Shown here one piece after another: positions 11,125-61,040 of a stretch of 64,000 bases of DNA. The DNA is taken from IMG/VR virus record IMGVR_UViG_3300046314_000658, one strand, 5' to 3'. The notes under the pieces are model-generated. The model saw nothing but the letters and a program-made list of their open reading frames with translations. It ran no database searches and was not told the origin of the DNA. Numbering within the stretch: the first letter of the stretch is position 1; each line of letters starts with the position of its first letter. Origin of the DNA: a virus. The translations under genes were made by a program, and so were the position numbers.

Positions 11125-11699
11125 AATGGATTGTGTGAAGTTAAGATTGCCATACGATCGTCAAAATTTGGTGTATCGATTACACACTGCTTTGTGGGTT
11201 GCGTCATTTGGCTAAAATAATCAATCATCGTCAAATCAACCATTCGACTATAATGACGATTGCTACCACGCGTGCCGTCGTGTTCAGGTTTGAAGTGTCC
11301 GGCACGGAGGTAATATACCTTGTCGTAAATCTGTTGCGCAGCCATACACTTGCGGTAATACTCATCCAACCAGTCACTGTATGAATTGTTATGCCCCATT
11401 GCTACTAAAGCATAGGTCCACAAATCAGAAAAGCTTCTTTCTGTAAAGATAACTTGCTTAGCGCCACTAGGAGTAGTCGCAAGGATAAATTGATCATCTG
11501 CCAACTTTCGCTTCAAAATTTCATCTTGGAACTTGCAAGTGAGTGCGTTATTCTCATTCACTTCATCAAGAGTATACCCCCAGTCAGCCAAAATGGATCG
11601 CGACGTCTTGCGGGCGATGACTTGATATCCTATTTTGGAAAGTTCCGCAAGAATGCTCGACTTGCCAGCACCTTGCGATCCTGAGACTGATATTAGCAT
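11109..11699 (-). CDS. P-loop nucleotide kinase (AAA_28/NadR-like)
   Basis: GSQGAGKS Walker A; ERSFSD; DGTR. Confidence 0.75.
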   Translation of the reverse strand: MLISVSGSQGAGKSSILAELSKIGYQVIARKTSRSILADWGYTLDEVNENNALTCKFQDEILKRKLADDQFILATTPSGAKQVIFTERSFSDLWTYALVAMGHNNSYSDWLDEYYRKCMAAQQIYDKVYYLRAGHFKPEHDGTRGSNRHYSRMVDLTMIDYFSQMTQPTKQCVIDTPNFDDRMAILTSHNPLWLPD

Positions 11700-11711
11700 A
11701 GGTTGGTTTCC

Positions 11712-11924
11712 TTATTTAACGGAAGTATCAGTTGCCGCTGCTTTTGCTGTTGCAGTATCCATCGAAGTGCGATTCAATGTCATAATTTGCTCATTGTGTG
11801 CACTCAACTTCGATGCCATCTTTGCGGCAAGAATGCTCGATAGAACAGCTTTTGCTTGCTCCGTGCTGTCTGTGACAACATTATTAATCATAGCACTATA
11901 TTGTTGACGTAGTTCTGGTTCCAT
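11712..11924 (-). CDS. Hypothetical protein
   Basis: In-operon helical ORF. Confidence 0.6.
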   Translation of the reverse strand: MEPELRQQYSAMINNVVTDSTEQAKAVLSSILAAKMASKLSAHNEQIMTLNRTSMDTATAKAAATDTSVK

Positions 11925-13868: not shown

Positions 13869-14138
13869 TCACCACCCCTTGTCTATGATTACCCTAGGCA
13901 TTGCATCCTCTTCGACACCATCTTTCATTAGTTTAGCAAGACGAGGTTTAAATAGAGATTGATTTCCTTTTGTGGTATACAGGATTGGCTGGCCGTGTGT
14001 GTCTTTACCAAATCCTGTCACAGTTGCTTTACGATTCTTGAATTTTCCAATTCGGATTTCGTCTCCTACTTCAATAGCAGGTAGTTCTAGCCGTGGTTGT
14101 TCAGCAGCTTCACATAGATAATCCAAGAATTTGCCCAC
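13869..14138 (-). CDS. Small SH3/KOW-like putative internal head protein
   Basis: GTG start; GKFLDYLCE|A N-terminus; IEVGDEIRIGKFKNRKATV. Confidence 0.55.
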   Translation of the reverse strand: MGKFLDYLCEAAEQPRLELPAIEVGDEIRIGKFKNRKATVTGFGKDTHGQPILYTTKGNQSLFKPRLAKLMKDGVEEDAMPRVIIDKGW

Positions 14139-14139
14139 T

Positions 14140-15390
14140 CTACAACCTCTTATCAATGTAGTTTTTAGCAGCTAGTAGTGTACCAAAACGATTAACAGTT
14201 GCGCCCACGATGGCCCATTGTTTTGGGCCTTCTTGGCGTACAGTGTACTGCTTGTATTTGATAGATTTGTACTCAGGCGATGTTGATTGTTCGTTGACAG
14301 CTTTACTGAAATTTCTCCAGTCGGATCTGATATGAGAACCTGGGAATTTAATCATTGTAACTTCCAACATTTCAAACCCACGGTCAACACTTAGGACTTT
14401 ACATTTCTCACCCTTGTACTTACTATCAGCAGTAATAGTAACAGTATCACCTTTTCTGAACGGAGAAGCTGCTTCTGTTACACCTCGTAAATCTTTTGCG
14501 CACATCCCACGCATTAGTACATTACCGTTTGGCAGCTTAATCGGTTGACCGAGCATTGTTGGACGATAGTCCGCGTGGCCACCAGCGTGACGAAGTACCG
14601 TGTTAGTTTTTGGATCGACTTCATACCAGTCATCATCATTGAAGTGACCGGTGTATGCTTCGTTAACTGCTTTAGACGCATATTTTACATTCTGCGCTGC
14701 GCGTGCTCGTTTATTAGCAGTGTCAGCAATGCTTTTCATCTGATCCAAGATTGGATCCTTAACTGGTGCGGTCAGCTTTTTAACACTACGCTTGATTGTA
14801 TCACTAAGACCTTCCACCACAGTTGGTTCATTGAATGATTCAGATACTGCTGAACGCGATTGTGCAGCTTCCCAACCCAAGTTCCATTCGCGATTGTCGT
14901 CACTACCAGCTGGGTGTGGATTTTTAACAACATCAGCGAGAAATGCATCGTACCCGGCAGCGTAAGCAGTGCTGTTTTTACTTTCTTTGACGCTTGCGTG
15001 CTTCTTTTTGATTTCGAAGTGATTCACGAACTTGCCATTCACAGTGTAATGATCGCCTGCTTTTGAGACGCTTGTGATTTTACCTTTGCCTCGGCCACCT
15101 TCTTGTGGCGGATCCATTTCGTACGACACGTCGTCACCAACTTTATATTTGTGCGTTAGTGCTTGTCCCATTACTTTACCAGCAATTTTGTTGAGTATAC
15201 CTTCTGTCAACGAGCCTTTGCTAGTTGGAGCATTGAAACGACCTTTGTGAGACGTTTTATCCCAAGCGTGGTACGTACCAGTCTTGTTATCTTTTGTAAC
15301 AGTGTAGCCAAGTTTTTTAGCAGCGGTTTCCCATTCGGCAAGTTTGGAGTAAGCGCTTTCATTGAGTGCGATGATAGATGTTAGTTTCAC
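14140..15390 (-). CDS. Putative protease-processed internal head polyprotein
   Basis: Eight [LV]-x-E|[SGAQ] sites separate 48-73 aa modules. Confidence 0.6.
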   Translation of the reverse strand: MKLTSIIALNESAYSKLAEWETAAKKLGYTVTKDNKTGTYHAWDKTSHKGRFNAPTSKGSLTEGILNKIAGKVMGQALTHKYKVGDDVSYEMDPPQEGGRGKGKITSVSKAGDHYTVNGKFVNHFEIKKKHASVKESKNSTAYAAGYDAFLADVVKNPHPAGSDDNREWNLGWEAAQSRSAVSESFNEPTVVEGLSDTIKRSVKKLTAPVKDPILDQMKSIADTANKRARAAQNVKYASKAVNEAYTGHFNDDDWYEVDPKTNTVLRHAGGHADYRPTMLGQPIKLPNGNVLMRGMCAKDLRGVTEAASPFRKGDTVTITADSKYKGEKCKVLSVDRGFEMLEVTMIKFPGSHIRSDWRNFSKAVNEQSTSPEYKSIKYKQYTVRQEGPKQWAIVGATVNRFGTLLAAKNYIDKRL

Positions 15391-16316
15391 TGTGCGTGTC
15401 CTTTTGATGTACGATATTTAGCCAAGCGTTGAACAAGTCGTTCATTTTTCTTGCGCTCTTTTTCTTCTTCTTCAAATTCTTCCATGTCTGCAACTTCTTG
15501 CTCGCGACTGATCTCAGCATCTTGTTTTTGAGTTTCAATGTCTTGTAACTCGGTTTCAGCTTTTGCTTTTGCAACATCAGCATTCGCAGTACGAACGCCA
15601 GTTTCAGATTTTAGTAGGTCGATCACCTGTTGCAATAACTGAACTGTGCTTTGCTGCATATCTGGAGATGTCTCATCTTCACTACCAAGTTCACCACCTT
15701 CTTCGCCATCAAGGTCCAGTTCATTATCACCAGCATCTTCCTCACCGTCAAGCGCGAGATCGTCTTCACCACCTTCTTCACTCTCTGGTTCCTCATCCTC
15801 TGTAATTGCTTCATCCCATTCAACGTCGACGATATCGTAGTCCTGCTTTAGCATGTACAGCACTTCTGCGATTTCTTTTGGATTGTCTGCATCACTCAAG
15901 ATAGCATTGAGACGAGTTTCAAAATCTTCCGCTTGATCGCGCTTAACGGTGACCTTGATCACTTTACCGTCACCATCTTGCAAACCAAAAGTAGATGTTT
16001 GTGTTTTATCATCAACCTGTGCACGCTTGGTAGCGTTTGACACCTTATCATTTACATCAGCAACGATCTTCGCATTTTTATCTGCACTGAGGCCATTCCC
16101 TCCGTTAGAGCCCACTGCTCCATCGAATTCAAATAGGATGGCTGTACTCACATCAAAAGTTGAGATTACACTTTCGCTAATCTTCAACTTTTGCACTTTA
16201 TTCTTTAGTATCGGACGTCGTTTAATAGAACCAGAGTGCGTAAATGGGTTACCAGCAATCGATGCTGCCCCTATCGAGCCAGCGGCTGCGTCTTCTAAAA
16301 TGGTAGAGAGTTTCAT
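15387..16316 (-). CDS. Acidic, coiled-coil putative prohead core/internal protein
   Basis: MKLSTILE|D start; long D/E-rich tract; C-terminal coiled coil. Confidence 0.55.
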   Translation of the reverse strand: MKLSTILEDAAAGSIGAASIAGNPFTHSGSIKRRPILKNKVQKLKISESVISTFDVSTAILFEFDGAVGSNGGNGLSADKNAKIVADVNDKVSNATKRAQVDDKTQTSTFGLQDGDGKVIKVTVKRDQAEDFETRLNAILSDADNPKEIAEVLYMLKQDYDIVDVEWDEAITEDEEPESEEGGEDDLALDGEEDAGDNELDLDGEEGGELGSEDETSPDMQQSTVQLLQQVIDLLKSETGVRTANADVAKAKAETELQDIETQKQDAEISREQEVADMEEFEEEEKERKKNERLVQRLAKYRTSKGHAQ

Positions 16317-16337: not shown

Positions 16338-17747
16338 TTATTTATCACCGAGGTAGCTCTTGTATAAGATTTCTACAGCTTGTTGAGTAGTTCTCGTGGA
16401 TTGTATTGCTTTTTCATTGCTACGAATGTCTGTAATGATATCAGCAAACAGCGACAACGTACGGCGAGTAATCTCAGGAGAGTACTTAAATTTGCGCCCC
16501 GTTGCTGAATCCATTTCAATTTTGTCGACCCGCTGCATAAATGTATCTTTTGCTTGGATCAGCGATTGTTCAGCAGTTTTTAGTGCTTGAATGAGTTGCG
16601 GACGAACTTTATTAATATCAACAGACCAGTCACCTTCACGAGAAGCAAGGAATGCACGGATTGTGCGAGGCGTTTTCAATTTCGGCTCTTGCAGGATTAC
16701 AGACAAATCCTCTAGCAAATCACCGTAGATAGAGCCACTACGTGTTTCAGCAACTTTTAACATTCCCTCAACGGGACGAGGTACAGTAGCTTTGATTTGA
16801 TTGCGAATAGCAAAGTTGAATTGATTGAAAGCGGAGAACACATCCTTATCAACAATCTTGATTTGACGGTTTGTTTTTGGATCGAACATAACGACGCCCT
16901 CGATACCCGGATCATGCTCAGCATCAACATCACTCACGTCACGCAAACTCGGTACCAGCGTACGGACAAACTGTTTGAGCAATTTCTCTTTAATTGGTAG
17001 TTTGAAATCGGTTAATAACTTCTCTGCAACTTGCTTGCGAAGTGCAACCATCTCCCGAGTCTTGGAGGTTGAACGAGTAATATCAGCAATTGACATCGCC
17101 CCCTGCGACGTCTCCACCTGCTGACTGATGTACAGCTTCAATTGCTCCAACTCATCCTCAAAATCAATCTGTTTTAACTTCTGTGCATCTATTTGTTGTG
17201 GAGTGGTGAAACGCCAAGTAATCATTGTTGGCTTCTTGATCAAATCTACCCCATTTTCAGTTGTAATCTCGACCGTCTCTACCTGTACTGGTGCTAGTTT
17301 CAATGATTGAAGTTTTTTGATGATTTGTGGAGATTGTTCGCTGATAGCGCGAAGAAATGCGATTGCTGAACTACCATAAATGATAGCATTTGGTTGTCGA
17401 CCATAAAGAACCTCACACTCAACTAATATATTAGCAGGAACCACTCTTGCTAGACTAGCCTCAACCTGTTGTAGTGCTTGATGAGCAGATTTAAACCCAA
17501 CATACGCAGGGGAGTCTCCCCACTGAGCTGGATCGTATACAGGCGTATCATTCCCTTTTTGCTGTCGGTTGGTATACAACTTACCGTGCTCGTCAATTCC
17601 GAAAGTTAGTGCAGATCCATCTAATTTTTCTGTTGCTGCATACCGAGTAAGGTTGGTAATTGTATCGACGAACTCATCTATCGACAGATCTTCGATGTGT
17701 TCAATCCCTTCTTTTAGGGATTGTTTTAAATATTCACTAAATCGCAT
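16338..17747 (-). CDS. Covalent nucleotidyltransferase/RNA-ligase-like protein (DUF6267-like)
   Basis: IEHIEDL, motif I TEKLDG, EGVV, IKIVDK. Confidence 0.6.
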   Translation of the reverse strand: MRFSEYLKQSLKEGIEHIEDLSIDEFVDTITNLTRYAATEKLDGSALTFGIDEHGKLYTNRQQKGNDTPVYDPAQWGDSPAYVGFKSAHQALQQVEASLARVVPANILVECEVLYGRQPNAIIYGSSAIAFLRAISEQSPQIIKKLQSLKLAPVQVETVEITTENGVDLIKKPTMITWRFTTPQQIDAQKLKQIDFEDELEQLKLYISQQVETSQGAMSIADITRSTSKTREMVALRKQVAEKLLTDFKLPIKEKLLKQFVRTLVPSLRDVSDVDAEHDPGIEGVVMFDPKTNRQIKIVDKDVFSAFNQFNFAIRNQIKATVPRPVEGMLKVAETRSGSIYGDLLEDLSVILQEPKLKTPRTIRAFLASREGDWSVDINKVRPQLIQALKTAEQSLIQAKDTFMQRVDKIEMDSATGRKFKYSPEITRRTLSLFADIITDIRSNEKAIQSTRTTQQAVEILYKSYLGDK

Positions 17748-20574: not shown

Positions 20575-21528
20575 ATGAAATTCTCACAATATTTATCTGA
20601 AGGCATTCGAGCAGCAGATTTCGAAAAGGCTGTTGGCACGATTGTTCAATATCTGCAAAAACAACTGGGTACAATGTATCGGTATCCACAGATTGAGCAC
20701 TACAGTGGTTCACAGGGTCAAGGGATTGGGTTGCGATATTTTCTGCAAGATGGCACTAGCTTGCGTTTCAATTGGACTTCAACGTCTGCATCTTCCAAGC
20801 TAGATTCGATCTCAATTTGGGATGGTTCGTCTCGTCACCCTAATTTCCAGATTCGTGGTATTGGGGATGTGCCACTTGGTCAACTGTCACTCGCAAAGAT
20901 CCTCCCAACACTTGCTCAAACTATCAAAAATCCAAAAGTTGGTGAAGTTGAGTTGTCTACACAAGAGTCAATCAGCGTACTGGCTGATTTGGATACCCAA
21001 CTATCCGAGAGCGTGTTGAACGAAGATGCATTCGATGATGTCGTCGGGGCGCTTGAACAAGGTGCTGTATCTGGCTACACATTCTCAAAGATGGGCCGTA
21101 ACCAAGAGCGTATCTTCAAAGAGATTCTAGCTGCTCATAAAGACGAGTTTGAAACCAAGGTCGATGGTGCTGGACGTCAACGGTACACATTCACAGGCGA
21201 GCTCGGCGAAATTAGCCGGGATGATATCGTGGGCAATGTAGTTGGCAACCAACAAAAGAGTGGTCGTCTTGGACTATCCGTTTCAGTCGGCGGTAACGAG
21301 AGCACAACAACAGATGGTGAAGATGCTGCAGCAAAGCAGTTCCCAGGTGCGCCAGCTCGGGTACCGTACGAAGAGCAGTTGGATGATATGAAGTCAATCA
21401 TCAATGCTGTTGTGAAAGGTGCGAGTAACTTCTCTGTGATATTAGGAGCTGGTGGACTTGGTAAATGTGCAAGTTCTGCGGTGTTATTGAATGGATCATT
21501 TAAAAACTGGGAAAAATCCCTCGCCTAA
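20575..21528 (+). CDS. AAA+ ATPase N-extein plus 20-aa split intein IntN
   Basis: Ends VILGAGGLGK|CASSAVLLNGSFKNWEKSLA*; Cys1 codon at 21466. Confidence 0.8.
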   Translation: MKFSQYLSEGIRAADFEKAVGTIVQYLQKQLGTMYRYPQIEHYSGSQGQGIGLRYFLQDGTSLRFNWTSTSASSKLDSISIWDGSSRHPNFQIRGIGDVPLGQLSLAKILPTLAQTIKNPKVGEVELSTQESISVLADLDTQLSESVLNEDAFDDVVGALEQGAVSGYTFSKMGRNQERIFKEILAAHKDEFETKVDGAGRQRYTFTGELGEISRDDIVGNVVGNQQKSGRLGLSVSVGGNESTTTDGEDAAAKQFPGAPARVPYEEQLDDMKSIINAVVKGASNFSVILGAGGLGKCASSAVLLNGSFKNWEKSLA

Positions 21529-22954: not shown

Positions 22955-24037
22955 ATGGATACTACTGCATTGAAACTTGAGACCAAATCGTTTGGTGAAC
23001 TGGCCGACCTAATTAAGCAACATCTCAATATTACAGAGTTAGAACTGAATAGACTATACGACATTCGCAAGTTCGAGTGGACTGTTCAGGATCATAACGA
23101 TACTCCTATTCCAATTATTGGACTAATTCGCAAGCATAGTAAAGCAATTGCTTTTGAATTCAGCGATGGTAGTGAAATTATTACTTCCACCCACCACCTA
23201 TTTGCCACTGACGATAGGTGCGATGTTACATTTGCTGCAGAGCTAGCGGTTGGTGATAGTATTACCAAAATTAGTGGTGAAAAAGTTACAGTAGTATCAG
23301 CAACTGCGCTACCAGAGCAAGATGTGTACGACATCCAAGTTAAGTCTCACAAGATGTTGTATCGCGATGCAGCTGGTTTTGTGCACCACAATACTCATAC
23401 TGTTGAAGAAACACTTGGAGAACTTGGCTTAGAAGACGGGAATGGATACTTCAAAAACACATCGAGCGGCTCTGCAGCTGGATTGTACAAGACTCTATTC
23501 ATGAACCGTACTGGCATTGTGGTGTTAGATGACTGTGATACGATTGTTGCCACACAAGAAGGTCGCAATCTATTGAAGGCTGCACTAGACACCAAAAAGA
23601 AACGGAAACTCGTCTGGGCAAAAATGGGTTCTTGGTTGTTTGACCCAGCTGATGAAGAGGAGATGGCAAAGGCACAAGACTCCATCGCGGTTGGTGAAGA
23701 ACCAGAGATGTTCCCACGATACTTCGACTTTGAAGGTCGTGTGATTATGATTAGCAACTTACCAGCAGAAACACTTGATCCAGATGGTGCACTAGCCACG
23801 CGCGGATTCATCATCACATTAAATCCAACGAAGGATGAAGTGTTTGCATTCATGCGTAAAATTGCACCGAAAATCCCCGTTGAAGGTCGTCAACTAACTG
23901 ATGCTGAGCGTAATGAAGTTGTTGATATGCTTGAGAAGCAATCTGGTACCGCCAATATTCGAAAATTAGTTCGAGGTCTCAATATGTGTGCCAGTGGGAC
24001 CCCTAATTGGCAAAGAATTGTCGAGCGTTATTGCTAA
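22955..24037 (+). CDS. Split intein IntC (146 aa) plus AAA+ ATPase C-extein
   Basis: STHHLF (block B), VYDIQV (block F), HHN|T junction at 23392; then VVLDDCD Walker B, FEGRVIMISN sensor I, ALATR arginine finger. Confidence 0.85.
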   Translation: MDTTALKLETKSFGELADLIKQHLNITELELNRLYDIRKFEWTVQDHNDTPIPIIGLIRKHSKAIAFEFSDGSEIITSTHHLFATDDRCDVTFAAELAVGDSITKISGEKVTVVSATALPEQDVYDIQVKSHKMLYRDAAGFVHHNTHTVEETLGELGLEDGNGYFKNTSSGSAAGLYKTLFMNRTGIVVLDDCDTIVATQEGRNLLKAALDTKKKRKLVWAKMGSWLFDPADEEEMAKAQDSIAVGEEPEMFPRYFDFEGRVIMISNLPAETLDPDGALATRGFIITLNPTKDEVFAFMRKIAPKIPVEGRQLTDAERNEVVDMLEKQSGTANIRKLVRGLNMCASGTPNWQRIVERYC

Positions 24038-24417: not shown

Positions 24418-25023
24418 ATGAAAGTCACCACTGTTTTATCACTACTAGAAGCAAAGGTAGCACCACTGTATCACGGTACAACTGCTGACAGTGCTGAAAA
24501 AATACTAGCAACCAACAACCTTACAGCTAGGGCTGAGATTGAACCAAATGCACTCAGGTACATGCGCGGTGCTCGAACTGGTGATAAGTCAGTTAGTTTT
24601 AGCAGAAGCATTAGTGCTGCGCGAGCATTCGCATCAGGAGCGCCACGCAGAACCGGAATTTCCGGTGTTGTATTTGTGATTGATCAAGCTCTACTAAGCA
24701 GAGACATTGGAAGACGACTCAACCCATATAATGACCTAACTGCATCTAGTAGTACTGCATCCAGAGGAGCAGGTTCGACAGAATATGAGGAGACTGTGGT
24801 TGGCGATGTGCGGAATTTTAACAAATATGTTAGTAAAATTATCGTGTTTGTGCACCCGCAATATAAAGATATGTTAGATCCTGAAATGTTCCCAACACTA
24901 CTGAATAACCCAAAAACAATCCTAACAACAAATACTACCATCAAAGACTTGCCAAATGTGTATGATAGATTCGCATCAGCAAAGGAATTGGAATTCCAAC
25001 AGCAGCATGACACTGCTAAATAA
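24418..25023 (+). CDS. ADP-ribosyltransferase-fold putative internal head protein
   Basis: LYHGT, SVSFSRS, VVFVID and EYEE motifs; MKVTTVLSLLE|A start. Confidence 0.6.
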   Translation: MKVTTVLSLLEAKVAPLYHGTTADSAEKILATNNLTARAEIEPNALRYMRGARTGDKSVSFSRSISAARAFASGAPRRTGISGVVFVIDQALLSRDIGRRLNPYNDLTASSSTASRGAGSTEYEETVVGDVRNFNKYVSKIIVFVHPQYKDMLDPEMFPTLLNNPKTILTTNTTIKDLPNVYDRFASAKELEFQQQHDTAK

Positions 25024-34562: not shown

Positions 34563-34846
34563 TATAGTAATCCGTATGTTCTTGCTCGTGTAGCACTAAT
34601 GTAGTCACGGGTGGTATTGATAAAATCATCTTCGGTCTCAAATCTGGCGACATCGTGGAGGTCGGGTGGACCCAATAACTCCATTACTGCTTCTAACAAG
34701 ACAGCTTCGTAACCTCGTCCCATAGAAATGCCAGCTGCATCATACCGTTGCCACAAAATAGTTAATAAAGTACGTGCACGAACACCAGGAGATACTGGAA
34801 GCGCATCCATTCGCTGTTGTGGAGATAGTAGAGACATTTGCTTCAT
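34562..34846 (-). CDS. Hypothetical protein
   Basis: ORF downstream of TTGACC-17-TAAGAT; start uncertain. Confidence 0.55.
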   Translation of the reverse strand: MKQMSLLSPQQRMDALPVSPGVRARTLLTILWQRYDAAGISMGRGYEAVLLEAVMELLGPPDLHDVARFETEDDFINTTRDYISATRARTYGLL

Positions 34847-34945
34847 GATCACCATCTTACTGAAATGGAAAAAAGGGGTCAACACTACTGCTGACCCCCC
34901 AATACTAGCTTTGGACTAGTGATCTATTTTAAGAAAATAACCTTA

Positions 34946-35173
34946 CTACAACCACAATGGAGTAGCAGATTGGGTAAGTGTACCTTCTACTAACTGCTTA
35001 ATCGTAGCACTACCATCAGTGTGTTCGATCAAACGAGCTTTGCGGCCAGTTGATGCAAATCGGCGGACTATCCAGTTGATCGGAGCATCAGTGTGTGCAA
35101 CACAATCGAGACGATATGTTGTATAAATTGTCTCTAACTCACGAATTTCAGATTCACGTAGCTCAACTAACAT
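34946..35173 (-). CDS. Hypothetical protein
   Basis: GGAG SD; starts MLVELRES immediately after the queD stop. Confidence 0.55.
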   Translation of the reverse strand: MLVELRESEIRELETIYTTYRLDCVAHTDAPINWIVRRFASTGRKARLIEHTDGSATIKQLVEGTLTQSATPLWL

Positions 35174-35174
35174 A

Positions 35175-35699
35175 TCAGTCTCCCAGCAAATCTTCATTCC
35201 ATTCGCGGTGACCAATTCTGTATGCCATATTACTTTCAGTTTCTCTGACAGAAACTTTATAGCACCAAATTCGAGCAGCTTCTCCACTGCCCCAGTAGTC
35301 TGGAATGAACACTCCGTTGATATATTTGTACAACATATCAGCAATTCCTTCACACCCAAGACGTGGAAGCTCAATTACCTTTGCAATCCCTCGCTTATTT
35401 GCTTCTCGATACCAATCAATTTCAGGATCACTAGAACTAACCAATAGAGTATGATCGAAGTTATTTTGGAGAAACTCCTTCAGGGGGCGCAAAGAGCCGT
35501 AGTCGACGCTCCAGTTCCTACAATCGAGATCATTTGTTCCGAAGTAAAACTTCATCGAGAAGGCATATCCGTGAATCTTATTGCAACCTGGAATGTTACC
35601 TGGTTTATCATCAGCGAGATACTGACGATATGCTACTGGAAACGCGTCAACATATTCTTTGGTTGAGGTGAAGCGATACGTAATTGGTGGATAATCCAT
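35175..35699 (-). CDS. queD: 6-carboxytetrahydropterin synthase (QueD/PTPS-like)
   Basis: CNKIHGY, WSVDYGSL, FDHTLLV, VRETESN. Confidence 0.85.
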   Translation of the reverse strand: MDYPPITYRFTSTKEYVDAFPVAYRQYLADDKPGNIPGCNKIHGYAFSMKFYFGTNDLDCRNWSVDYGSLRPLKEFLQNNFDHTLLVSSSDPEIDWYREANKRGIAKVIELPRLGCEGIADMLYKYINGVFIPDYWGSGEAARIWCYKVSVRETESNMAYRIGHREWNEDLLGD

Positions 35700-60416: not shown

Positions 60417-61040
60417 TTATTCCAACCCCATTCGATTACGCAACAATTCAAATAATGAAGCTGCTTGTCGTTGTGGTTGTCCAGTAATTACCGTGAACGA
60501 CTTGATGTCGTTATCTGCAACAGCTTGTCGTGCTTTGGTACTCGATGCGAGTGAAGCTGGATCATCAGCATCTGTACGGGATAAAGATCTCACATCAGGG
60601 GGAGTTTTTTGGTAATCAACATCAAATATTTTAGAAGATAAATCACGATACTTATCAACGCGATCCTCACCACAGACGAGCAGGTCAAGATCTCCACCCG
60701 TCTCCTTGACATTAACTAGTGCTTGAAAAGCATTTGCCGTAACCATCACTTCGACAGTTGGGTACACTGATTCTATTAGTTGCTTGCGTTCAGCTCCTGT
60801 TAACAATCTGTCGGTGGTGTTCAATCCACCTACATCGACAACTGCCACAACTGGAACTAGGTCACGTTGCTTACACGCAATCAACAGTTGATTGATCATT
60901 TTTTTATGACCTATTGTCAATGGTGAAAATTTACCAATCACCATCCCGATAGCTGGCGGTGTGGGGTCATCAATGCTCCCACGCTCCTCTCGGAGTGACT
61001 CCTGTATCGCTTGCTTTGATAAGTAAAATGCTTTAAACAT
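60417..61040 (-). CDS. Cytidylyltransferase-like (HIGH-motif) protein
   Basis: GKFSPLTIGH, GEDR, SSTKARQ. Confidence 0.75.
   Translation of the reverse strand: MFKAFYLSKQAIQESLREERGSIDDPTPPAIGMVIGKFSPLTIGHKKMINQLLIACKQRDLVPVVAVVDVGGLNTTDRLLTGAERKQLIESVYPTVEVMVTANAFQALVNVKETGGDLDLLVCGEDRVDKYRDLSSKIFDVDYQKTPPDVRSLSRTDADDPASLASSTKARQAVADNDIKSFTVITGQPQRQAASLFELLRNRMGLE

Follow-up and report, generated by a model that had tools for sequence, protein, structure and literature searches.

In phage T4, the prohead protease gp21 cuts after L/I-x-E, and the internal proteins carry a capsid targeting sequence (CTS) of 10-19 residues that is removed by gp21 (PMC9026906). In this study, we examined a stretch of viral DNA of 64,000 nucleotides (nt) from IMG/VR record IMGVR_UViG_3300046314_000658, referred to here as the window, and in particular a gene on its minus strand whose product of 416 amino acids (aa) is made up of a short leader and a series of small modules separated by sites that resemble those of gp21. 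We suggest, from the sequence and from comparison with related phages, that this product is a capsid-addressed cargo polyprotein, which would be loaded into the prohead and cut at its joints, the domains being kept with the DNA; we regard this account as probable while holding clear reservations about it. According to this proposal, the 11-residue leader MKLTSIIALNE|S (the bar marks a predicted cut) would act like the CTS of a T4 internal protein and bring the chain into the prohead core, where the gp21-family (Peptidase_S77) prohead protease of the phage would cut after Glu at V/L-x-E|small linkers between the domains. Cleavage would free seven mostly basic domains of 5-8 kDa (two SH3/KOW-like, one RMF-like and four others), which would remain with the DNA and probably accompany it into the host. 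Since targeting and release would need only the leader and the joints, modules could be freely gained, lost and exchanged.

The closest described systems are the internal T4 proteins IPI, IPII and IPIII together with Alt (PMC9026906). Like the window protein, these have a short leader that ends in hydrophobic-x-Glu and is followed by a small residue, and both the T4 internal proteins and the predicted window pieces are small, basic, non-essential and encoded at a variable locus outside the head cluster; the clade of the window phage also has a gp21-family protease. However, each T4 internal protein is a single product with one cut, at the leader (Alt is cut at both ends), whereas the window chain has at least seven domains with a site at every joint, and its domains, unlike the T4 proteins, occur in changing combinations from phage to phage. 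For the T4 internal proteins, packaging and cleavage have been demonstrated; for the window protein they are predicted. A second comparison is with T4 gp22 and the inner-body and ejection propeptides of phiKZ and SPN3US (PMC9026906, PMC10052503), which likewise have many Glu-ending sites per chain and a gp21-type protease, the site density per 100 aa being 3.7 in gp22 and 1.7 in the window polyprotein. In these cases one mature C-terminal product survives while the scaffold or propeptide is broken down, whereas the window segments are predicted to be independent, folded and reusable domains. The polyvalent proteins (Iyer et al. 2017, PMC5512222) are, like the window chain, mosaic proteins with rapid domain turnover, and their 2-15 domains are thought to travel with the DNA; a further link is an ART-PolyVal-like (PF18760) gene with the same kind of leader at the equivalent slot of the syntenic IMG/VR locus L007. 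However, polyvalent proteins are large and usually have their own peptidase (MPTase and others), whereas none was found in the window chain, which has a motif for a protease acting in trans and modules of 50-70 aa, and none of its seven modules is a recognised polyvalent-protein domain. In the cultured Pseudomonas phage PA5oct, the products of EST35_0237, 0238, 0203 and 0150 are site-dense, were detected in virions and include leaders (MFLKDVKITE|S, MKIKDILVE|S, MKINDIITE|G) like that of the window protein, with no detectable sequence similarity to the polyprotein itself. By comparison across these systems, the predicted architecture is well supported as a variant of the T4 internal-protein cargo in which many cuts would release many unrelated domains. 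Our literature search found no publication describing such protease-jointed multi-domain chains.

The polyprotein gene starts with a GTG that runs into the upstream gene's stop codon (caGTGA); AAGGA lies 9 nt upstream of this start, and close homologues begin with ATG at the same MKLTSIIALNE. The gene and its predicted segments are listed here with the isoelectric point (pI) and the predicted local distance difference test (pLDDT) of the structural model where given:

14140..15390, minus strand, whole polyprotein gene, 416 aa, GTG start, stop codon at 14140-14142
15358..15390, minus strand, leader, residues 1-11, MKLTSIIALNE|S, candidate capsid-targeting sequence like the T4 CTS
15202..15357, minus strand, module A, residues 12-63, small alpha+beta unit, pI 9.6, ends LTE63|G, pLDDT 94-96
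14983..15201, minus strand, module K, residues 64-136, helix plus SH3/Tudor/KOW-like barrel, pI 9.6, ends VKE136|S, pLDDT 91-96 over residues 81-130
14839..14982, minus strand, module D, residues 137-184, RMF-like two-helix unit (Pfam RMF), acidic, pI 4.8, ends VSE184|S
14812..14838, minus strand, nine-residue spacer between two sites, residues 185-193, SFNEPTVVE|G (site VVE193|G), pLDDT <50 over residues 186-195
14659..14811, minus strand, module E, residues 194-244, helical, basic, pI 10.1, ends VNE244|A
14473..14658, minus strand, module B, residues 245-306 (beginning YTGHFNDDDWYEVDP), beta-rich, ends VTE306|A
14290..14472, minus strand, module L, residues 307-367, KOW/SH3-like barrel, ends VNE367|Q
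14143..14289, minus strand, module F, residues 368-416, beta3-alpha C-terminal unit, pI 10.0

Together with LNE11|S at the end of the leader, the seven sites listed above make eight, and the resulting pieces would measure 11, 52, 73, 48, 9, 51, 62, 61 and 49 aa. A preliminary description of the window had predicted this open reading frame (ORF) with these eight sites and the word SKAVNE in two copies; all sites lie at the residues given there, SKAVNE begins at residues 239 and 362, and the piece sizes agree. The least certain site is VNE367|Q, because the residue after the cut (P1') is Gln and the structural model puts the site at the end of a helix. There are three other hydrophobic-x-E triplets, LAE19|W, FNE188|P and MLE343|V, two of which have Trp or Pro at P1' while the third lies inside a predicted beta-sheet. 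By the strict motif [VILM]xE[GSAT], the polyprotein has seven sites, or 1.68 per 100 aa compared with 0.315 over the 170 ORFs of the contig; this is about five times the density in the rest of the contig and places the polyprotein first of the 170 (Poisson p = 4e-4).

The AlphaFold2 model, which was run on a family alignment of the polyprotein, has a mean pLDDT of 77.5 and a predicted template modelling score (pTM) of 0.30, and depicts the chain as well-formed beads with no fixed mutual positions. The pLDDT is lowest at residues 59-64, 186-195 and 233-242 and dips at 131-140, 301-310 and 361-370, and in the model these minima coincide with the proposed sites. The sites thus fall in low-pLDDT joints between predicted folded domains and not inside them, as the preliminary description had supposed when it placed them at domain boundaries. 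The modules are unrelated to one another; two of them are SH3/KOW-like beta-barrels, recognised by structure comparison. Residues 76-131 of module K match KOW/Tudor/SH3-like barrels with a VIA Z of 6.0 and a root mean square deviation of 1.8-2.8 A over 50-53 residues, and residues 307-362 of module L match the KOW domains of Spt5 and NusG with a VIA Z of 5.6-6.0. These are middling matches (Z <8), with a Foldseek E of 9e-3 to Spt5; Foldseek against the PDB gave nothing at E <= 1e-3, with weak KOW and SH3 rows only. The KOW-like and RMF-like units named beforehand also have Pfam matches that are real though weak and below threshold: the KOW match, in module L, has E 0.019 and 15.2 bits (cut-off 22.3), and module D matches RMF with E 0.021 and 15.3 bits (gathering cut-off 27.9, PF04957). 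In relatives, module D scores 27.7 (P0004), 27.4 (P0005), 23.4 and 19.1 bits, again all below 27.9, and a six-frame RMF search of the contig did not recover it; from its sequence the module is RMF-like but no certified member of PF04957. In PA5oct, a stand-alone 'hypothetical protein' of 68 aa encoded in the long terminal repeat (EST35_0072, 23200-23406) matches Pfam RMF with E 1e-5 and 24.3 bits, also below the cut-off, so RMF-like units may recur in this group of phages outside polyproteins.

Further evidence for a modular chain comes from its relatives. A full HMMER scan of 1.84 billion representative proteins found 92 metagenomic relatives of 55 to 1321 aa, and nearly all of these match one query module only, at any position in their own sequence. 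The matched ranges of the query are residues 12-63, 64-136, 137-184, 194-244 and 245-306, that is, the segments between the predicted cuts, and in the other proteins the query modules are again flanked by such sites. Module K is found in 46 other proteins, with an upstream site in 30/46 and a downstream site in 26/46; module B occurs in 26 (upstream site in 18/26) and module A in 27, at varied positions, and module F also forms the C-terminus of P0004 and P0005. The leader is kept in homologues P0003, P0004, P0005, P0011 and P0013. P0003 is 91% identical to the window protein over residues 1-137 and 79% over residues 240-365, with a middle that is wholly different. When leader-bearing relatives were cut at the motif and the pieces clustered, the window protein read leader-A-K-D-E-B-L-F, and relatives read leader-A-K-G-M-E-H-B-L; leader-A-C-D-N-..-E-H-..-B-F; leader-A-C-D-N-G-M-F; leader-C-B-I-J; and leader-A-I-J. 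Relatives at the same slot combine one stock of modules in different ways, and chains of relatives also carry cytidylyltransferase and GNAT domains.

In an all-against-all BLAST comparison, 738 of 2961 homology breakpoints lie within 4 residues (<=4) of [VILM]xE[GSAT], compared with 293 +- 16 for random positions, a 2.5-fold enrichment for the Glu motif that is not found with Asp, Lys or Gln at P1, the residue before the cut. For the 93 family members, composition alone predicts 160 occurrences of the motif and 482 are found (3.0x), the corresponding controls being 1.05x for Asp, 0.93x for Lys and 0.8x for Ser, and the extended consensus of the junctions is Q-G-V-A-E|G. Both the breakpoint statistics and the clustered architectures therefore point to a shuffling of modules at the sites among homologues, for which the preliminary description had proposed to look. 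These numbers also bear on the simplest alternative, namely that an ordinary multi-domain protein happens to contain such sites by chance. The triplet [LIV]xE is indeed common, and the p of 4e-4 for the single protein is a value before correction; however, the family-wide statistics, the position of the breakpoints and the QGVAE|G sites that flank the same modules in unrelated proteins make chance a scarcely credible explanation.

Another family of long proteins rich in sites, of 660-1000 aa and with 11-15 sites, was also seen, with the N-terminus MA..E.FN.DLY.LL..RG. and not the MK..[DE][IL]..E leader; its members are G006:C1:85090-87072 (+), P0081, P0083, L057, L061, L065, L066, L078 and L096.

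The window lies within an IMG/VR virus record of 139 kb with an estimated completeness of 52%. Among the products of the contig are rIIA/rIIB, proteins of the tail tube and of the baseplate hub and wedge, a tRNA nucleotidyltransferase and NAD enzymes of the NadV/NatV type; its ribonucleotide reductase genes are split and accompanied by homing endonucleases. The baseplate wedge protein shares 31-34% identity with its counterparts in XacN1 and Xoo-sp13 (Xanthomonas), RsoM2USA (Ralstonia) and PA5oct (Pseudomonas), and near-identical DNA was found across many freshwater metagenome runs, among them the lake runs X1-X13. The best explanation is an uncultured freshwater jumbo myovirus of the XacN1/PA5oct/Rak2-like group that builds T4-type heads. 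Peptidase_S77 is present in XacN1, Xoo-sp13 and PA5oct. It was not found in five syntenic IMG/VR fragments, but these and the window contig are only 7-52% complete, so this negative result says nothing about absence from the genomes. For the wider family, a degenerate DNA search of IMG/VR for the peptide EQGVAEG returned at least 120 stretches (loci L027-L146), most of which lie in frame within long site-rich ORFs with N-termini like MRFNQIVE|N or MIIDDLFE|A. Peptidase_S77 is encoded on 4/5 of the largest contigs with such polyproteins, and these contigs belong to the same clade (baseplate wedge protein 31-34% identity). Clade contigs further encode a separate scaffold of 364 aa with 12-14 sites that adjoins the protease (an S77 protease lies at 34640-35272 of G006); in the 300-kb genome G006 this scaffold is the top ORF of the motif ranking (p = 7e-11) and polyprotein-like ORFs come next. 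The N-terminus of the clade capsid protein reads M..LLE|G..ALLE|G.

As a control, the same motif ranking was applied to the 227 ORFs of T4, where the scaffold gp22, gp21 and inh came out as the top three, all of them head-core proteins tied to gp21. The likeness of the sites to the gp21 specificity, which had been proposed beforehand, is thus supported by a motif that ranks these proteins first in T4 and by relatives that carry a gp21-family protease. The N-terminus of the window protein likewise has the form of a T4 CTS, about 10-19 aa ending in L/I(V)-x-E and followed by a small residue, and a regular expression (regex) for such leaders matches ipII, ipIII and one other among the 227 T4 ORFs, which agrees with the earlier suggestion of a capsid-targeting leader. 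We also considered whether the polyprotein might itself be the gp22-like prohead scaffold, and rejected this identity: the gene is accessory, it lies between a helicase and an exonuclease gene, its modules include beta-rich ones, and the clade scaffold is the separate 364-aa gene.

Some virion data are available from PA5oct (MK797984.1), 93 of whose 461 proteins were detected in purified virions by electrospray ionization tandem mass spectrometry (ESI-MS/MS) (PMC7318152). The highest site density in PA5oct belongs to the scaffold-like EST35_0153; its absence from virions is what one would expect if the scaffold is degraded. The next most site-dense are EST35_0237 (395 aa, MFLKDVKITE|S, 7 sites) and EST35_0203 (498 aa), and both are annotated as virion proteins. 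PA5oct has the same order of helicase, homologue of a 474-aa protein and exonuclease as the window phage, and in its helicase-exonuclease interval 11 of 15 genes have virion-detected products, including leader-bearing and site-dense proteins. As a hint that the window protein is packaged, these data are indirect and suggestive only. EST35_0152 (210 aa), annotated as 'prohead assembly (scaffolding) protein', is the Peptidase_S77 match of PA5oct, and EST35_0153 (368 aa, 'hypothetical protein'), which follows it within 84079-85830, looks like the true gp22-type scaffold.

The PA5oct data also bear on the idea that the window protein is a cut, head-targeted substrate of a more modest kind, a sacrificial prohead-core or filler protein or a source of DNA-condensing peptides, whose fragments are expelled or kept and have no effector role in the host. 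In T4, cleavage of gp22, gp67 and gp68 yields numerous fragments, most of which exit the head (PMC9026906), the site-dense scaffold of PA5oct was not found in virions, and five of the seven window modules are basic (pI 9.3-10.1), like DNA-associated internal proteins. On the other hand, the PA5oct analogues were kept in virions, the modules form separate folded domains which turn up in many settings, also alongside enzymes such as cytidylyltransferase and GNAT, and the gene is missing from several syntenic relatives and therefore no essential core part. We consider such a role without any effector function rather improbable. To call the pieces of the favoured cargo polyprotein 'effectors' is nevertheless a guess; they could equally be DNA-associated internal proteins.

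The joints of the wider family have a further property. Canonical EQGVAEG joints are near-fixed at synonymous positions as GAG CAA GGT GTG GCG GAA GGC (GAGCAAGGTGTGGCGGAAGGC), with GTG used in 83% of joint codons compared with 21% of flanking codons in the same ORFs and GCG in 82% compared with 13%, and the flanks of these joints are not conserved. Examples of the 21-nt word are the IMG/VR loci of the EQGVAEG search and G006:C1:213191, 213506 and 245964. The word may be a recombination linker or an RNA-level signal. This fixation is in line with another reading of the window protein, in which it stays uncleaved, its joints being flexible linkers and, in the wider family, DNA microhomology words that allow modules to be shuffled by recombination, and acts as one chain in the virion or the cytoplasm. 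However, the word is absent from PA5oct and from the window contig, where no copy occurs within 3 mismatches. The joints of the window gene match 7-15 of its 21 bases and use all of the Val codons GTC, GTA, GTG and GTT, and despite this codon variation they keep V/L-x-E|small; they are thus constrained at the level of the peptide and not of the DNA, which favours recognition by a protease. Glu at P1 and a hydrophobic residue at P3 would be unnecessary in a generic linker, the enrichment is confined to Glu as against Asp (in T4, Asp at this position blocks processing), and the same motif is found at the clade scaffold and capsid N-termini and ranks known gp21 substrates first in T4. An uncleaved chain is, in our view, unlikely. 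The two properties might also be combined in a dual code, in which the joints are at once a head-protease mark and a 21-nt microhomology word, a clade-wide plug-in grammar for kits of host-directed proteins; we put this forward tentatively, as possible though rather doubtful. If it holds, any module could be recombined behind any other in giant phages of freshwater and soil and, with the help of the leader, ever-changing kits could be loaded, cut and delivered; the RMF-like piece, which could act on hibernating ribosomes, would be one example of such a host-directed protein.

Several observations weigh against the capsid-addressed, cleaved cargo polyprotein that we favour. The site enrichment of the single protein is only borderline after correction for 170 tests, and the fixation of synonymous positions means that a DNA-level role accounts for some of the conservation of junctions across the wider family. 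Neither a head module nor Peptidase_S77 was found in the window contig (139 kb, about 52% complete), and the phage's own prohead protease was not seen because the contig is without the head module. Applied to the annotated PA5oct genes, the leader regex gave 4/8 virion-detected positives against a base rate of 20% (p ~0.06), a weak test, as the regex was written after the data had been seen; its virion-detected positives include gp150 (MKINDIITE|G), which is encoded between the portal and protease genes. The neighbouring leader-bearing protein of 474 aa has a homologue in PA5oct, EST35_0228, that was not among the proteins detected in virions. Moreover, products as small as 5-8 kDa might exit the head like T4 scaffold fragments. 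Finally, a search for the T4 late-promoter word TATAAATA gave 4 matches compared with 2.9 expected, none near the polyprotein gene, which is uninformative. Contigs from the RNA-library run X24 cover parts of the polyprotein gene at 90-95% identity, but are not counted as expression since they come from a relative and possibly from DNA carry-over.

If the protein is loaded and cut as we propose, a single gene would supply the host cell with many small proteins just as the DNA enters, in a set that could be changed by swapping a cassette. The 92 relatives and the at least 120 IMG/VR stretches with the canonical joint would then represent a large, unexplored pool of factors for host takeover or anti-defence in the first minute of infection, and dozens of unassigned virion proteins in PA5oct-like phages would be explained. 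With the leader and the V/L-x-E|small rule, the virion cargo of uncultured phages could be predicted together with its mature ends, and the arrangement would be a natural design for loading several foreign proteins into T4-type capsids.

The polyprotein gene lies between the genes for a DnaB-like helicase and a PD-(D/E)XK exonuclease, and syntenic IMG/VR loci run from the helicase gene through those for 474 aa and 309 aa, the polyprotein and a product of 88 aa to the exonuclease gene. Such a position among replication genes, and not in the head module, would suit a cytoplasmic polyprotein that is cut by another Glu-specific protease of the phage or the host, apart from head maturation. However, neither the chain nor its neighbours were found to have a protease domain, the leader fits the pattern of capsid targeting in T4, the same replication-flanked interval of PA5oct encodes virion proteins, and T4 ip genes are found outside the head cluster too; we therefore think a cytoplasmic polyprotein very improbable. 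Searches with Pfam and PHROGs gave no peptidase domain in the polyprotein or in ten relatives. For the polyprotein, no PHROGs family could be assigned, the ESM Atlas gave no usable match and tblastn against 50,697 phage records found none.

The slot is variable, in line with the swappable cassette put forward in the preliminary description. It holds a protein of 416 aa in the window, one of 393 aa in L007, where module B is the only module in common with the polyprotein, and one of 586 aa in L010, and the gene is missing from the syntenic relatives L009 and L011-L015; comparison of these sequences indicates that it is an accessory gene. A natural variant was also found. The variant and the genes next to the polyprotein gene are:

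14040..14494, minus strand, natural variant, 455 bases replaced by 312 others; a contig of DNA run X16 joins 14039 to 14495
13869..14138, minus strand, downstream gene, 89 aa, GTG start, leader MGKFLDYLCE|A and an SH3-like unit
15387..16316, minus strand, upstream gene, 309 aa, leader-like MKLSTILE|D, very acidic, in all syntenic relatives
16338..17747, minus strand, gene starting with MRFSEYLKQSLKE|G, 469 aa, weak RNA-ligase-like match, PA5oct homologue EST35_0228

The variant exchanges modules L and F, the replaced part reaching from roughly residue 300 of the polyprotein to roughly residue 34 in the gene that follows; its break lies 7 codons before VTE306|A, and a contig of the RNA-library run X24 breaks at the same 14495. 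The homologue of the downstream gene in L007 (10800-11363, +) encodes 187 aa; here an extra module, placed exactly between ..LVE|A of the leader and a joint of the form ..TTE|G, precedes the SH3-like unit that L007 and the window gene have in common. Also in L007, the ORF after the polyprotein slot (11365-11775, +; 136 aa, leader MRMTAIVE|A) matches Pfam ART-PolyVal (PF18760) with E 4.6e-6 and 27.9 bits (cut-off 31.2), and is an Alt-like candidate. A leader-bearing ORF of 201 aa in the window was considered as its homologue and not accepted as such, because the two have only the word P(L/V)YHG(T/S)T in common (E 0.047). Further T4-CTS-like N-termini in the window are found at 24418-25023 (+), 20575-21528 (+) and 60417-61040 (-), and in the same order read MKVTTVLSLLE|A, MKFSQYLSE|G and MFKAFYLSKQAIQE|S, the last on a cytidylyltransferase-like protein (20.8 bits); these genes, like the three neighbours listed above, are candidates for further head cargo.

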